Positions 28,708-60,376 of a stretch of 64,000 bases of DNA are shown in pieces; the first letter of the stretch is position 1, and each line of letters opens with the position of its first letter. The notes below the pieces were generated by a model that was given only the letters and a program-made list of their open reading frames with translations, did no database searches and had not been told where the DNA came from. The translations under genes and the position numbers were made by a program. The stretch spans positions 619,757 through 683,756 of the forward strand of contig OY969414.1 of the NCBI GenBank assembly GCA_963699155.1. The letters are read 5' to 3'. This DNA comes from an uncultured Chlamydiales bacterium. GTDB taxonomy: Bacteria; Chlamydiota; Chlamydiia; Chlamydiales; JAAKFR01.

Positions 28708-30879
28708 TTATTGCCTGATTTCAGATTTTTGAGGACGCAGCTTCCGCGCATCATGTCTTTTCTGGTTTGCCTCGTTTTTTTGAGCCCGAACTTCACGCAG
28801 TCTCTGCACACCATCAAATTTCCAGCACAAAACCGCACCCACAACCGAGAGGGCGACAGTTCCGAAAACGGCTCCAAGAATGATGGGTAAGTTATTTTGT
28901 GCATAATCTCCAAGATTGGTTTCTTGCTGAAGTTCACTCTGCGCTAACGGTGTTGAAATGCTGCATTGGTATTGATCATTGCAACCCAAAAAAGTAGGAT
29001 CTCCCCCGCTACTATTGACCTTAGCGATACTTAATTGGGTGATTACGCTGGGATCGAAGGGCTGACCTTCTTGTACAAGACTCATATTTGCCGTGAAGAC
29101 AAGCGAGTAGCCCCCACTATCGACGAGAATCACCTTGGTGACATTTGGTCCCACGGCAATCATCTGCCCTGTCACAGGAACAAAGCTACTCGTTAATCCA
29201 ACTGGCAGATTAACAGTAATGGTAAATGCTCCTGAAATGATCGTGAAGGTGGGGCTAGGACCTGATGGAGTCAGGGTTGGAACTGAAGAAACCGCTACCG
29301 GAGTTGATGGAGCAGGTGTGGGAGGATCTGGCTGAGGCGGAGAAGTAAGAAAGTAGGTTTTATCTAGATTCTCATCCCAAAATCCTACGATACCCGTAGC
29401 ATCATCAAAACAACCCGTCACCGGCTTGGGCGGGGTACTCGTATTCCCAAGGTAGCCCGAATATCTGGCCACAGTTACAGCACTACTATTATTTCCAGCA
29501 TCCACATAACTATAATCGATCGCCACAGATCCATTAATCGATTCTTTTGCATAAAAATAGAGGTGGGGATATTGCGGGCCGCACTGAGCAATCCGCATTT
29601 TAGAGATAGGAATTGGTTCCTGACTCAACGCTCGACTGGCAATAATTTGATGATTGACGATGTCGTAGGTATAAAGAGTCGGACTCATCTGATCCGAGCC
29701 TCTAGAGATAAAGGTACTAAAGTTAGCTGAACTTTTAGAGACTTGAGTAGTTGGTGTCGTTAGATCTGGAATGACTTGATCATAAACTAAGCGGGAACCG
29801 AGAAAGGTAATGCTAAGATTGGCCTCTTGTCTAAATTCCAGCTCCATTTGTCCCGTTCCGCTCTGATTTGTAAATAGTCTAAAAGTTCCATCGTCAAACG
29901 CTAAAATATCCTGATGAGCTGGGCCAGATGCAGTTGGAAGCCCATAGGGGAATTGATCAGACGAGGTACCTGGACACCCGCCACTGCTAGTACTGAAAGT
30001 CAGGAATGAACCTGAATTATTAAATGAAGGGAAGACAGATTGATTTCCTAAAAGAAGAGAAGGCCGCCATGGATCGGGAAAAGGGGGGAGAGTGTAGAGC
30101 CTATCAATAAAAGAGCATATGCCAGGGCTTATCCATAGAGTCTGGTTTTCTATAAGTGAAGCATAAGTAAATAATTCAACGCTATCATACTGCAGCGTGA
30201 TAAAGGAATGATAGAGTCCATCTTTACAGCCACTCGTATATTGTGATAAGCCTCTTACTCGATTATAATTATAATTATAAGGCAGCTGACTACTTATATT
30301 GCTTGAGGCTTGTTGCATGAAACTCAAATTGCTACCATTGAGGCTATAAAGCTGAACTTGGGGTATACAAACTGTGGAGTTAGCTTGTTCAAAATCGGTA
30401 ATGGCAAATCCCTCAATGCCTGAAACGCATAGATCCAAGTTACCAGAAGGAACACCCGTTTGAGTTGGAAAAAAATAACCTTTAGGAGACGCGGTTTGTG
30501 CCGAAACTTCCGGAAAGCACAACGCCGACCCCAATGCCAATGCTGCTGGGTTGCCAGTCACTGCAGTTCCCACAGCACCCAATGCAAGGCCCGAAACGCA
30601 TTTGAGATCCGCCGGTTCTTTGTAGGAAATGCCCATCTTATCAAAGAGCATGGTGCTTTCTGGCACAGAGAAAGTTTGCAAGCCACCTGCGGTAGTGTTT
30701 TTAATCTCATGACCCTTGATCTCTCCACTTTCTCCGCCACCGCTCCACATCTTCGAAAGGAGCCCACCCAAACCAATGGCTCCCCCCGCAAGCAGAAGAG
30801 CAGTGTAGAGCTGTTTTCCCCAAGATTCTTGAGGCTGTGCACCTTGACGATCAACCGGACCTAGTGAAGATGAGGCCAT
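28708..30879 (-). CDS. Large type I membrane-like protein with internal signal-peptide-like segment and many N-X-S/T sequons
   Basis: Hydrophobic stretch ending CFPEVSA-Q, Pro/Ser/Thr stalk, C-terminal TM and basic tail; paralogue of 58097-60376. Confidence 0.85.
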   Translation of the reverse strand: MASSSLGPVDRQGAQPQESWGKQLYTALLLAGGAIGLGGLLSKMWSGGGESGEIKGHEIKNTTAGGLQTFSVPESTMLFDKMGISYKEPADLKCVSGLALGAVGTAVTGNPAALALGSALCFPEVSAQTASPKGYFFPTQTGVPSGNLDLCVSGIEGFAITDFEQANSTVCIPQVQLYSLNGSNLSFMQQASSNISSQLPYNYNYNRVRGLSQYTSGCKDGLYHSFITLQYDSVELFTYASLIENQTLWISPGICSFIDRLYTLPPFPDPWRPSLLLGNQSVFPSFNNSGSFLTFSTSSGGCPGTSSDQFPYGLPTASGPAHQDILAFDDGTFRLFTNQSGTGQMELEFRQEANLSITFLGSRLVYDQVIPDLTTPTTQVSKSSANFSTFISRGSDQMSPTLYTYDIVNHQIIASRALSQEPIPISKMRIAQCGPQYPHLYFYAKESINGSVAIDYSYVDAGNNSSAVTVARYSGYLGNTSTPPKPVTGCFDDATGIVGFWDENLDKTYFLTSPPQPDPPTPAPSTPVAVSSVPTLTPSGPSPTFTIISGAFTITVNLPVGLTSSFVPVTGQMIAVGPNVTKVILVDSGGYSLVFTANMSLVQEGQPFDPSVITQLSIAKVNSSGGDPTFLGCNDQYQCSISTPLAQSELQQETNLGDYAQNNLPIILGAVFGTVALSVVGAVLCWKFDGVQRLREVRAQKNEANQKRHDARKLRPQKSEIRQ

Positions 30880-31060
30880 AATTCCCTCCCATTAAAAACT
30901 TTGCTGATAATAATTTACACAATCCCCCCATTTATTAAAAGACTATCAAGACCTTCAGAAATTAATCAGCTAGTTCATCATCCTCCACACACTTTTTTGA
31001 GCACATAACCTTCACTTGCTCGCAAAGATTTCAAAAGATGACGAAGAGCATCGGGATGTT

Positions 31061-58096: not shown

Positions 58097-60376
58097 TTAA
58101 TGATCGGGATTTATCGTTACCAACATGGATTGATTAGGTTTAGGTTTAGGAGCGATACGCTTCTGCATTGGTGGCTTCGAGCGAGGTATGCGAGTGCTAC
58201 ACTCCTTCTGCGCCTCAGCTCTTTTCTGGGTTGTCTCCTCTTTTCGAAACACATGTAGAAAGTTTTTCTGGCCTCTAAAACGCCAGCACAAAACCGCACC
58301 CACAACAGAGAGGGCGACAGTTCCGAAAATGGCTCCTAGAATGATGGGTAGGTTATTATTTGGGTCTACCAAATCTCCAAGATTAGATTCTTGCTGAAGT
58401 TCACTCTTCGCTGTTGAAAGGCTGCATTGGTATTGATCATTGCAACCCAAAAAAACAGGATCTCCCTCGCTACTATTAACCTTAGCGATACTCAATTGGG
58501 TAATGAGGCTGGAATTTAAGGGTTGACCCGCTAGTAAGGGGGTCATATTTGCCGTGAAGACAATGGAGTAGCCTCCACTATCGACAAGAATCACCTTTGT
58601 GACGTTTGGTCCCACAGAAATCATCTCTCCCGTCACCGGAACAAAGCTACTCGTTAATTCAGACGGTAGCGAAATAGTAATGGTAAAGTCACCTGAAACG
58701 ATCGTGAAGGTCGGTGTAGGAGTTGAGGGGTTCAATGTTGGAACAGGAGAAACTGGCATAGAAGTTGATGCACTAGGTACTGGAGTCGGCAGAGGTGAAG
58801 GCAATGGTGGTTGACTTACTTGAAAATAGCTGGAATTTTTACTCTCATCACTAAAACCAACAATTCCAGTTGCATCATCGAAACAGCCGGGCTTTGGTTG
58901 AGGTGGGCTCGTTAGATTTCCTAAATAGCCAGCATAAGTTTGCTCAGCTCCGACCGGGTTGCTAGAGTTCCCTGCGTCTACATAACCAAAATCGATGGCA
59001 ACTGATCCATTTGCTGTCTGCTCCTTGGCGTAAAAATGGAGATGAGGATATTGAGGGCCGCATTGTGCCACTTTTGGCCTACTGATCGGAGCACTTTGTT
59101 GACCCAGCGAACGGTTGGCAATAATTTGATGATTGACAATGTCATAGGTATAGAGAGTCGGAGTCATTTGATCAGAACCTCTTGAAATGAAGGTGCTGAA
59201 ATTGGCCGCGCTTTTAGAGATTGGGGTGGTGGGTGTTGTAAGTTCTGGAATGACCTGGTCATAAACCAAGCGTGAGCCCAGGAAAGTAAGGGTAAAGTTT
59301 GGTTCAAATCTGTACTCCAGCTCCATTTGTCCCTCAGCGCTTTGATTGGTAAAAACCCTAAAGGTGTTATCATCGAATGCTAAAATATCTTGATGTGTTG
59401 GCCCAGGGGCTGTTTGAACCCCAATTAAGTCAGTGGAAGCCTCTGCATCATAAAAGAACCCGCCACCGGGGAGACTTTGAATCAAAAAGGATCCGCTTTG
59501 GTTAAAGCAAGCAGCAACTGACTGATTTCCTAAAAGAGCTGTGGGTCGCCAGGGATCGGGGAAGGGTTGTTCCCCAGGCGATGGTTGGTATAGGGCAACA
59601 GGGTAGCCAGGGATCAAGAGTGAGCCATTTTGTATAGCAAATTGATAGATAAGCGGTTCAGGTGTGGGATCGGAAAATGTTCCGGATATAAAAATTTGAT
59701 AAGCTCCTTGATAACAACCACTTTCGTATTGAGCATTTGATGCTGACCCGACTGTAAATTGACTAGTAATGTTATTGGAGATTCCTTGCATTAAGTTAAT
59801 ACTAGTTCCATTGAGTGTAAAAAGTTGCACACGCGAATAACTGCGTTCCGACTCTGTGTTTAAATACCCATCAATTGCCATTCCCTCCTTCCCCCAAACA
59901 CATAGGTCAAATTCTCCAAGATCAATTTGATCTGGTTGGATTGGGAATTGATCTGGTTGGATTGGAAAAAAATAACCTTTAAGGGATGCGGTTTGTGCAG
60001 ACACTTCCGGAAAGCATAAGGCTGATCCCAATGCCAGTGCCGCTGGATTTCCTGTCACTGCGCTTCCCACAGCACCCAATGCAATGCCAGAAGCACATTT
60101 GAGATCCGCCGGTTCTTTACAGGAAATGCCCATCTTATCAAAGAGCATGGTGCTTTCTGGCCCCGAGAAAGTTTGCAAGCCAGCTGCGGTAGTGTTTTTA
60201 ATCTCAAGACCCTTGATCTCTCCACTTTCTCTGCCACCGCTCCACATCCTTGAAAGGAGCCCACCCAAACCAATGCCCCCTCCTGCAAGCAGAAGCGCGG
60301 TGCAGAGCTGTTCTCCCCAAGATGTTTGAGTTTGTGCAACTTGACGATCAACCGGACCTAAGGAAGATGAGGCCAT
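58097..60376 (-). CDS. Large type I membrane-like protein with many N-X-S/T sequons (paralogue of 28708-30879)
   Basis: Near-identical N-terminal ~135 aa, upstream DNA and TM; diverged ectodomain; 21-bp tandem duplication FPIQPDQ x2. Confidence 0.85.
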   Translation of the reverse strand: MASSSLGPVDRQVAQTQTSWGEQLCTALLLAGGGIGLGGLLSRMWSGGRESGEIKGLEIKNTTAAGLQTFSGPESTMLFDKMGISCKEPADLKCASGIALGAVGSAVTGNPAALALGSALCFPEVSAQTASLKGYFFPIQPDQFPIQPDQIDLGEFDLCVWGKEGMAIDGYLNTESERSYSRVQLFTLNGTSINLMQGISNNITSQFTVGSASNAQYESGCYQGAYQIFISGTFSDPTPEPLIYQFAIQNGSLLIPGYPVALYQPSPGEQPFPDPWRPTALLGNQSVAACFNQSGSFLIQSLPGGGFFYDAEASTDLIGVQTAPGPTHQDILAFDDNTFRVFTNQSAEGQMELEYRFEPNFTLTFLGSRLVYDQVIPELTTPTTPISKSAANFSTFISRGSDQMTPTLYTYDIVNHQIIANRSLGQQSAPISRPKVAQCGPQYPHLHFYAKEQTANGSVAIDFGYVDAGNSSNPVGAEQTYAGYLGNLTSPPQPKPGCFDDATGIVGFSDESKNSSYFQVSQPPLPSPLPTPVPSASTSMPVSPVPTLNPSTPTPTFTIVSGDFTITISLPSELTSSFVPVTGEMISVGPNVTKVILVDSGGYSIVFTANMTPLLAGQPLNSSLITQLSIAKVNSSEGDPVFLGCNDQYQCSLSTAKSELQQESNLGDLVDPNNNLPIILGAIFGTVALSVVGAVLCWRFRGQKNFLHVFRKEETTQKRAEAQKECSTRIPRSKPPMQKRIAPKPKPNQSMLVTINPDH

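Follow-up and report, generated by a model that had tools for sequence, protein, structure and literature searches.

Selected N-X-S/T sequons in a family of propeller-headed chlamydial membrane proteins, candidates for N-glycosylation by the host

A stretch of 64,000 nucleotides from the genome of an uncultured Chlamydiales bacterium (contig OY969414.1, positions 619,757 to 683,756), referred to below as the window, carries two paralogous genes whose products, P0001 and P0002, are type-I-like membrane proteins rich in the N-X-S/T sequon. The two proteins belong to a small family of environmental Chlamydiae, of which no earlier description was found, and the portion of these proteins that extends from a predicted β-propeller to the C-terminal transmembrane (TM) helix is under long-standing selection for N-X-S/T on loops. 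The reading favoured here, to which we assign a probability of about 40%, is that the family consists of secreted membrane proteins that would be N-glycosylated by the host of the bacterium.

Results

Sequon excess in P0001 and P0002

Sequons were scored as N, any residue other than P, then S or T, and the ectodomains as residues 128-662 of P0001 and 128-672 of P0002. The complete proteins contain 18 and 19 sequons compared with 5.9 and 5.7 expected, respectively. Each ectodomain holds 17, on 28 Asn in P0001 and 27 in P0002, which agrees with the 17 per ectodomain counted by hand in an earlier, sequence-only reading of the window. Shuffled ectodomains contained 5.5 ± 2.1 (P0001) and 4.7 ± 1.9 (P0002) sequons and reached 17 in 0/20000 cases, bearing out the enrichment over shuffled sequences that the sequence-only reading presupposed, and when the shuffling was confined to blocks of 20 or 40 residues the observed count was reached in 0/5000. 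Eight control motifs, comprising the reverse sequon ([ST]xN), N[ST], [ST]N, QxS/T, DxS/T, NxxS/T, Nx[AG] and N-x-C, occurred at expectation. The extended sequon of PglB substrates, D/E-x-N-x-S/T, accounts for 1/17 sequons in each ectodomain (about 0.4 by chance), and a Campylobacter-type system was rejected as D/E is not enriched at position -2.

Within the source genome, G000 (2.40 Mb, 100% complete), the excess is confined to these two proteins. Among its 1803 non-overlapping open reading frames (ORFs) of at least 150 residues, P0001 and P0002 rank first and second for sequon excess (z = 6.06 and 5.51), and the ORF ranked next owes its z of 4.21 to only three sequons. G000 overall is at expectation, with 2587 sequons vs 2631 expected. 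The same is true of the 287 ORFs that display a crude Sec-signal signature (488 vs 503 expected, no excess), and the Sec-exported TIG/PKD proteins encoded next to P0001 likewise lack an excess (7 vs 8.8 and 4 vs 6.2 expected).

P0001 and P0002 are 65% identical (475/734), and 15 of the 18 sequons of P0001 are aligned to sequons of P0002. In the ectodomain the proportion is 14/17, compared with approximately 5.2/17 expected from the retention of non-sequon Asn and S/T (binomial P = 1.6e-5), and this was achieved despite saturated synonymous divergence (dS) in the propeller, the part in which the paralogues differ most. Where the residue at +2 has changed it is still S or T in 6/9 sequons vs 11/46 other S/T positions (Fisher P = 0.019), and all seven of the substituted pairs listed in the sequence-only reading (NGS/NGT, NIS/NIT, NQT/NGS, NNS/NQS, NLS/NFT, NTS/NLT and NMS/NMT) were recovered in the alignment. 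In the structural model of P0001, 14/17 sequon Asn are in loops, which comprise 48% of residues (P = 0.004). The sequon positions show no repeated sequence context.

A family of twelve sequon-rich proteins

Word-index homologue searches, with P0001 alone or with the 12-member alignment, found only the two paralogues, and metagenome scans with the single proteins P0006 and P0003 found nothing. Relatives emerged when 1.84 billion representatives were scanned in full with an HMMER profile, a search that returned 21 hits. Ten relatives are full length (P0003-P0007 and P0009-P0013; 20-33% identity), and these, with P0001 and P0002, are the 12 members on which the family counts are based. The layout common to the ten is a 7-bladed β-propeller, a Pro/Ser/Thr hinge, a β-sandwich, one TM and a basic tail. 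The β-sandwich also occurs in P0015, there following FG-GAP repeats, and two of the matches are fragments. Searches of Pfam, NCBIfam, the PDB and the full-text literature yielded no family model, solved relative or publication covering the P0001/P0002 family. Neither P0001 nor P0002 was assigned to a family by Pfam or NCBIfam, the NCBIfam model MyrrCad matching at the TM only and below threshold (15.9-18.8 bits vs a cut-off of 33). Against PDB sequences a profile matched only ACE2, in the TM region and without significance (E 0.3), and a search of the ESM Atlas gave no usable match.

Members of the family contain 11-22 sequons vs 4.7-9.3 expected. In 11/12 members at most 85/5000 shuffles reach the observed count, the signal being weak in P0010 (844/5000). 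When the ectodomains of the 12 members are pooled, 170/401 Asn are in sequons (74 expected), and the excess is still evident when the window pair is left out (136 vs 63.5 expected). In the tails 6/32 Asn are in sequons (3.3 expected), and in the regions before the propeller 23/89 (13 expected), the majority of them at residues 1-45. Conservation across homologues, which the sequence-only reading proposed as a check, is found, with a sequon at the N598 and N622 columns in 8/12 members and at the N245 and N479 columns in 6/12. Sequons turn over between relatives, yet the excess persists. The Cys residues C218, C633 and C639 are invariant in the family and C151 is nearly so.

Predicted structure of P0001 and P0002

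The AlphaFold2 (AF2) model of P0001 places a 7-bladed β-propeller at the head of the ectodomain, in a block with a predicted local distance difference test (pLDDT) score of mostly 75-92. When compared using VIA-align the propeller matched that of CylK (Z 25.9, root-mean-square deviation (rmsd) 4.0, 332 aligned) and Escherichia coli YncE (Z 23.0, rmsd 3.6, 303 aligned). The similarity to YncE/lactonase-like proteins extends over the whole domain and is one of fold only, with 5-10% identity and no Pfam match. WD40 proteins, integrin α heads and fucose lectins score below CylK and YncE, and the propeller is therefore regarded as generic. Viral and PDB Foldseek lists likewise consist of generic propellers and reveal no specific relation to a viral glycoprotein. 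The β-sandwich of P0001 bears the sequons N579, N598 and N622 together with the invariant C633/C639 pair. Its position bears on the Pro/Ser/Thr stalk described in the sequence-only reading; such a stretch exists (about residues 505-544), but it is a hinge and is not membrane-proximal, as the β-sandwich (545-645) lies between it and the TM. The tails of P0001 and P0002 are 37 and 61 residues long, and those of the relatives 26-108. A sortase- or exosortase-type sorting signal was rejected since these tails are too long for one, which consists of a TM and few terminal basic residues.

Divergence between the paralogues is uneven. In the leader, β-sandwich and TM dS is 0.2-0.55, while it is saturated in the propeller. 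The ends have thus been retained or homogenised, and the head has either diverged or undergone exchange. This pattern suggests gene conversion at the gene ends or exchange of the head between P0001 and P0002.

N-terminal regions and the leader module

The leaders of P0001 and P0002 (residues 1-127) comprise a Ser/Gln-rich N-terminus (residues 1-23), a TM-like segment (residues 24-42; 19-residue Kyte-Doolittle mean (KD19) of 1.67 in P0001 and 1.75 in P0002), a loop of mixed charge (residues 43-93) and a hydrophobic module (residues 94-127). The module has two invariant Cys (C-x26-C), glycine-zipper-like spacing and a central NP turn, and ends in LCFPEVSA, which is followed by Q128. The sequence-only reading, which described a Ser/Gln-rich leader of about 95 residues, was right as to the N-terminus but overlooked the TM-like segment at 24-42. 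The internal hydrophobic segment that it saw ending before Q corresponds to the module, with a -3/-1 cleavage-type motif (V/A/T-x-A, then Q/E/A) at the module end in 7/7 aligned leaders. The putative cleavage point between LCFPEVSA and Q128 fits the -3/-1 rule of type I signal peptidase.

The annotated ATG is the true start in both genes. A ribosome-binding site (RBS) is conserved at this ATG and the leader codons are under purifying selection, with a ratio of non-synonymous to synonymous divergence (dN/dS) between P0001 and P0002 of 0.18 for codons 1-127, 0.37 for codons 1-76 and 0.065 for codons 77-127; the long leader is thus translated and not an artefact of ORF calling. A start at an internal Met (M77 or M82), which would make the module an ordinary N-terminal signal, is ruled out by the conserved RBS of M1 and the dN/dS of 0.37 for codons 1-76. 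Similarity between the two loci ends beyond the conserved 61 nucleotides upstream of the genes.

The N-terminal regions of the family fall into three types. The window pair combines a TM-like segment with the hydrophobic module (type 1), P0003 and P0006 have one N-terminal signal-anchor-like TM (type 2), and type 3 is a hydrophilic domain of 90-280 residues without a hydrophobic segment. The KD19 maximum is at most 1.11 in P0004, P0005, P0007, P0009, P0010, P0012 and P0013, and 1.23 in P0011. In 6/12 members the first 25 residues lack acidic side chains and abound in S/T/N/P/Q, a composition typical of type III signals. The junction before the propeller contains K-R in 9/10 relatives (consensus [EK]-K-R-x-[LAI]-x-Q) and A-R in P0007. 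The boundary at which the delivery region meets the propeller is thus a conserved site of two kinds, putatively proteolytic. Homology between the hydrophilic N-domains of the leaderless members and the N-domains of leader-module proteins elsewhere was considered and dropped, as BLASTP showed no similarity.

The window-type leader is a mobile module and also heads unrelated proteins of approximately 1180 residues (P0016, P0018, P0019 and P0022), a small Cys-rich TM protein (P0017) and a YncE-like propeller (P0021). The hydrophobic half of the module was found in 10/400 scored genomes of a phylum sample, including G000, and all ten are in the order of G000. There are at most nine matches per genome, often 50-550 residues from the N-terminus and behind hydrophilic domains; located so deep within a protein, such an element is not a bacterial Sec signal. 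It is not represented in Pfam or NCBIfam. The pattern C..GL..G..GS....NP.PL..G.S.C.P...A-Q/E occurs in loci L009-L019 (genomes G147, G135, G221, G292, G199, G324, G371, G232 and G030), frequently ahead of repeats of the type EFxVNTYT...Q..PSVA.

Distribution and lifestyle of the bearers

Three genomes, all chlamydial, bear the family (G000, G401 and G444). P0009 is a single copy on a 292-kb contig of an uncultured Parachlamydiaceae metagenome-assembled genome, and the gene in G444, a 76% complete genome of the order of G000, is P0011. A sample of 401 genomes of the phylum yielded no real match besides G000, the match in G055 containing eight stop codons, and a 401-genome sample of the order added only G444 as a bearer. 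No family member was found in G147, G322 and G456, which are of the same genus as G000. Its absence from these three genomes and the few bearers in the samples indicate that the family is rare and patchy. G000 has two genes that are strong ATP/ADP translocase matches, as well as two FHIPEP loci of the type III export-gate type. In view of these translocases, the export-gate genes and its chlamydial relatives, G000 is, judging by gene content, the genome of an obligate intracellular bacterium.

Candidate glycosylation enzymes

Searches with PF02516 (STT3) and PF13844 (GT41), the latter of which we take to be the model covering HMW1C-like cytoplasmic N-glycosyltransferases, gave no match in G000, G401, G444, G147 and G322, while the positive controls were matched (PF02516 in four archaea and PF13844 in two genomes). 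The bearers thus match neither known family of N-X-S/T glycosyltransferases, as judged by these models, and no glycosyltransferase adjoins P0001 or P0002. G000 has a GtrA and a GT2 enzyme beside a 653-residue protein without family assignment. This GT-C-like protein of the gtr cassette was set aside as the enzyme of the family because it was not found in G401, G147 and G322 with that query, which is weak since the query matched nothing. Near P0009, locus L004 (16022-22000) contains a GT25 glycosyltransferase and two adjacent eukaryote-type Sulfotransfer_1 genes, within 10 kb, and an NAD-dependent sugar epimerase is located 2.5 kb upstream of P0009.

Features and neighbourhood in the window

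The coordinates of the two genes and of the parts of their products are collected in Table 1.

Table 1. Position of P0001, P0002 and their predicted parts in the window
Feature	Position	Strand	Basis
P0001 gene, 723 residues, sequon-rich type-I-like membrane protein	28708..30879	-	intact ORF and translation
P0002 gene, 759 residues, paralogue of P0001	58097..60376	-	intact ORF and translation
P0001 5' leader DNA, 61 nucleotides, GGGAGG RBS about 5 nucleotides before ATG	30880..30940	-	88.5% identical to DNA upstream of P0002
P0002 5' leader DNA, GGGAGG RBS about 5 nucleotides before ATG	60377..60437	-	conserved with P0001 counterpart
P0001 leader, residues 1-127	30499..30879	-	hydrophobicity, dN/dS 0.18, module also on unrelated proteins
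P0002 leader, residues 1-127, layout as in P0001	59996..60376	-	
P0001 predicted 7-bladed β-propeller, residues 143-500, 14/17 ectodomain sequons	29380..30453	-	AF2 model, VIA-align
P0001 Pro/Ser/Thr-rich hinge, residues 505-544	29248..29367	-	sequence; pLDDT <50; length varies in family
P0001 β-sandwich, residues 545-645, about 100 residues, membrane-proximal, conserved	28945..29247	-	AF2, family alignment
P0001 single C-terminal TM helix, residues 664-686	28822..28890	-	KD19 maximum 2.47; helix in AF2 model
P0001 basic tail, residues 687-723, unconserved, dN/dS 1.7 vs P0002	28711..28821	-	
P0002 ectodomain, residues 128-675 (propeller, hinge, β-sandwich), 17 sequons	58352..59995	-	
P0002 TM helix, residues 676-698	58283..58351	-	KD19 maximum 2.48
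P0002 basic tail, residues 699-759	58100..58282	-	

Directly downstream of P0001, on the same strand, is a set of tandem paralogous TIG + β-propeller + PKD proteins (18443-28631). It comprises members at 26757-28631 and 24829-26712, a split copy (21182-22012 and 20149-21297) and, at 18443-19879, a propeller of lactonase type. Classical Sec signal peptides are present in most of them, and the set shows no sequon enrichment. A gene 5 kb from P0001 (23224-24054, minus strand) encodes 276 residues, in which a short N-terminal part precedes some 55 residues that are hydrophobic, bilobed and Gly-rich. This layout is the classical signature of Inc proteins, and the product has no Pfam match. Divergent from P0001, across a 633-bp spacer, lies a gene for a 670-residue fusion of RibA (GTP cyclohydrolase II) and an S-adenosylmethionine-dependent methyltransferase (31513-33525, plus strand).

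P0002 is followed directly downstream by a large RHS/YD-repeat protein with DUF6531 (54618-57926, minus strand), behind which is a second RHS ORF (52680-54602, minus strand); an RHS copy at 37765-39639 matches the chlamydia-specific DUF687 weakly. A 2314-nucleotide inverted repeat of RHS-repeat gene fragments (36580-38893 and 53474-55787, 99% complementary) encloses a 14.6-kb segment of low GC content (32-41%) with DDE and rve transposases and several methyltransferases. The segment between the paralogues looks like an invertible or recently rearranged island.

Discussion

Selection for N-glycosylation is the most economical reading of these data because the sequon signal is real, is specific to N-X-S/T, is kept between the paralogues and is common to relatives of 20-33% identity. 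The enzyme would be that of the host, as this is the only known N-X-S/T-specific activity that an obligate intracellular bacterium could reach. It is proposed that the proteins of the P0001/P0002 family would leave the bacterium outside ordinary Sec export, most likely by type III secretion, and would arrive in a secretory or vacuolar membrane of the host with the propeller in the lumen and the tail in the host cytosol, and that the host oligosaccharyltransferase would add N-glycans to the lumenal ectodomains. In the window pair the leader would be cut off after VSA, before Q, by a signal-peptidase-type cleavage. The product may be a heavily glycosylated, receptor- or LAMP-like coat of the host-derived membrane with a fast-evolving head, and fast evolution of the head is expected at a host interface. 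The points cited against Sec export are the secure start codon, the neighbours with classical signal peptides and the leaderless members; the type III-like composition of the first 25 residues in 6/12 members and the export-gate genes of G000 are counted in the same sense. The conserved Cys residues and the conserved junction motif are extracytoplasmic-type features.

Several points weigh against host N-glycosylation. The main weakness is topology, above all in members without a hydrophobic leader, and no route is known that takes an N-terminal domain of 500-750 residues into the lumen of the endoplasmic reticulum (ER) or vacuole after type III injection. An Inc-like insertion with one C-terminal TM would leave the propeller in the host cytosol, where N-glycosylation is not known to occur. 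The internal ER signal proposed in the sequence-only reading fails as a general route for the family, since 8/12 members have no segment with a KD19 of at least 1.6 before the propeller; most members lacking a signal-like segment, it holds at best for the window pair. Sequon excess also does not accompany the leader module, as the module-bearing proteins P0016, P0018, P0019 and P0022 contain 5-8 sequons vs 5.8-9.7 expected, and those of loci L010 and L011 7 vs 10.2 and 2 vs 6.6, respectively. The exception among module-only proteins is L013 (G199:C228), of 755 residues and with a C-terminal TM, which has 20 sequons vs 10.4 expected; part of this excess derives from a repeat motif, VNNYT or VNNHT, which in relatives is VNTYT and no sequon. 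The AF2 model, built on a 12-sequence alignment, reaches moderate quality (mean pLDDT 65), and only 4/12 proteins were traced to chlamydial genomes (three genomes), the other eight being from metagenome contigs. With respect to the enzyme, the Pfam GT41 model may miss some HMW1C-like enzymes, the negatives in G444 are limited by its 76% completeness, and G000 and G401 both carry other sugar-modifying genes.

Precedents for parts of the proposed route exist. The review PMC8065698 places a type III effector of Salmonella, as reported, within the ER lumen, mentions a BiP-binding effector of Brucella, and says that ER proteins enter the Chlamydia inclusion via rough-ER synapses. None of these precedents, as presented there, concerns N-glycosylation of the bacterial protein itself. 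A full-text literature search, conducted mostly at the level of abstracts, found nothing on sequon-rich or host-N-glycosylated chlamydial proteins.

The sequons could instead serve an unrecognised glycosyltransferase of the bacterium, either a cytoplasmic enzyme that modifies N-X-S/T before export or a periplasmic GT-C enzyme, the product being a glycosylated surface or secreted adhesin. HMW1C glycosylates the HMW1 adhesin in this manner, and flagellins receive glycans before type III export. That the genome contains just two sequon-rich proteins fits a dedicated enzyme-substrate pair such as HMW1/HMW1C, and the sequons that several leaderless members carry within residues 1-45 would be within reach of a cytoplasmic enzyme. 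The GtrA/GtrB-type cassette of G000 with its 653-residue membrane protein, and the P0009 locus with epimerase, GT25 and two sulfotransferases, point in the same direction. Set against this, GT41 and STT3 are unmatched in all three bearers, the 653-residue candidate was not found in G401 with the query used (a weak negative), and the window pair has no adjoining glycosyltransferase. Moreover, the conserved Cys, hinge, TM and basic tail would be superfluous in a cytoplasmically modified adhesin, and a third independent class of N-X-S/T enzyme would be unprecedented. Modification by an enzyme of the bacterium is therefore considered rather unlikely. Slightly less credit is given to the view that there is no glycosylation at all, the proteins being inner-membrane or periplasmic propellers, or cytosol-facing and Inc-like, in which N-X-S/T has a structural role, as Asx-turns in the loops of β-hairpins, or serves some other recognition. 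The turns and loops that house 14/17 of the sequon Asn are places where Asn-x-Ser/Thr turns are structurally favourable; the N-terminal signal-anchor and C-terminal TM of P0003 and P0006 give a hairpin layout, common in bacteria, in which the domain is periplasmic; and the neighbouring propeller at 18443-19879 has NQT within its blade repeat. A structural role is difficult to reconcile, however, with the enrichment of the exact sequon alone, since N-x-[AG], N-x-x-S/T, the reverse motif and the Q/D analogues are not enriched, or with the other propellers and exported proteins of G000, which are at expectation. The lack of repeated context around the sequons, the persistence of the excess through their turnover among relatives and the preferential interchange of S and T at +2 argue in the same sense.

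The layout of a glycosylated head, hinge, TM and basic tail, which is eukaryote- or virus-like, and the location of the genes on either side of a low-GC island rich in insertion sequences would be compatible with recent capture of a type I glycoprotein gene from a eukaryotic host or a virus, the sequons being a functionless relic. This is highly improbable, as there is no eukaryotic or viral relative among the 1.84 billion representatives (21 hits) or the PDB sequences, the GC content of the genes (~45%) is near that of the genome (47.5%), and the sequons have been kept across paralogues with saturated dS and relatives of 20-33% identity, in three chlamydial genomes.

That host cells lipidate, phosphorylate and ubiquitinate bacterial effectors is established. 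The same cannot be said of host N-glycosylation as a trait selected for and built into a family of bacterial proteins, and no chlamydial report of it was found. If host N-glycosylation of the P0001/P0002 family is correct, bacterial proteins reach the host secretory lumen and borrow its glycan machinery, which would bear on long-standing, unsettled reports that chlamydial envelope proteins carry N-glycans, on the resistance of the inclusion to host hydrolases, and on immune or lectin mimicry. A more far-reaching version, possible if somewhat doubtful, is that these bacterial genes evolved for glycosylation by the host oligosaccharyltransferase and provide a host glycan coat, as mimics of type I glycoproteins that line the inclusion or the host surface; the leader module, with its C-x26-C hydrophobic hairpin and A-x-A-type site, would then be a new bacterial device by which secreted proteins enter host membranes without the co-translational Sec61 route. 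Were the enzyme bacterial instead, it would represent a third and new class of N-X-S/T glycosyltransferase, of biotechnological interest.

Comparison with known systems

The proteins resemble Incs in that they are chlamydial, lack a classical Sec signal, have a type III-like N-terminus and hydrophobic segments, and are presumed to reside in a host-derived membrane. They differ in that there is no bilobed domain; the segments of the window pair (residues 24-42 and 96-122) are separated by 53 residues, the second of them forming a module of 27 residues with an NP turn in its middle, a third TM is at the C-terminus, and 8/12 relatives have the C-terminal TM alone. Incs are not known to be sequon-rich, and their soluble parts face the cytosol. 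With HMW1/HMW1C of Haemophilus influenzae the family shares many N-X-S/T sites, one or two substrates per genome and an atypical long leader, and in HMW1 the sites are really glycosylated. Unlike that system, there is no GT41 match in the five genomes searched and no two-partner-secretion context, and HMW1 is related neither in sequence nor in fold, being a β-helix compared with the propeller of the window pair. Surface glycoproteins that are substrates of archaeal AglB are similar in their sequon-dense ectodomain, Thr/Pro-rich linker and C-terminal TM anchor. The window proteins are, in contrast, from a chlamydia-like bacterium without an AglB/STT3 match and have tails of 37-61 residues in place of a short sorting signal, and on these grounds an archaeal S-layer reading was rejected.

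In layout the proteins resemble eukaryotic and viral type I glycoproteins such as LAMP, integrin α and henipavirus G, in which a β-rich lumenal domain with dense sequons on its loops is joined through a Pro/Ser/Thr hinge to a single TM and a short basic cytosolic tail. The likeness is in particular to the heavily glycosylated coat proteins that line the lumen of lysosomes. The propeller matches that of integrin αV (Z 19.9, rmsd 4.4, 336 aligned), and the head of Langya virus G was also matched. Unlike these proteins, those of the window are encoded by bacterial genes, have no N-terminal ER signal peptide and show no sequence similarity to them, and the similarity of fold is one that 7-bladed propellers have in general, bacterial CylK and YncE scoring best. 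The propeller head, type I layout, host-modified effectors and Inc-like delivery are thus each of a known kind; what is new is their combination, and a family selected for sequons in bacteria without an oligosaccharyltransferase.

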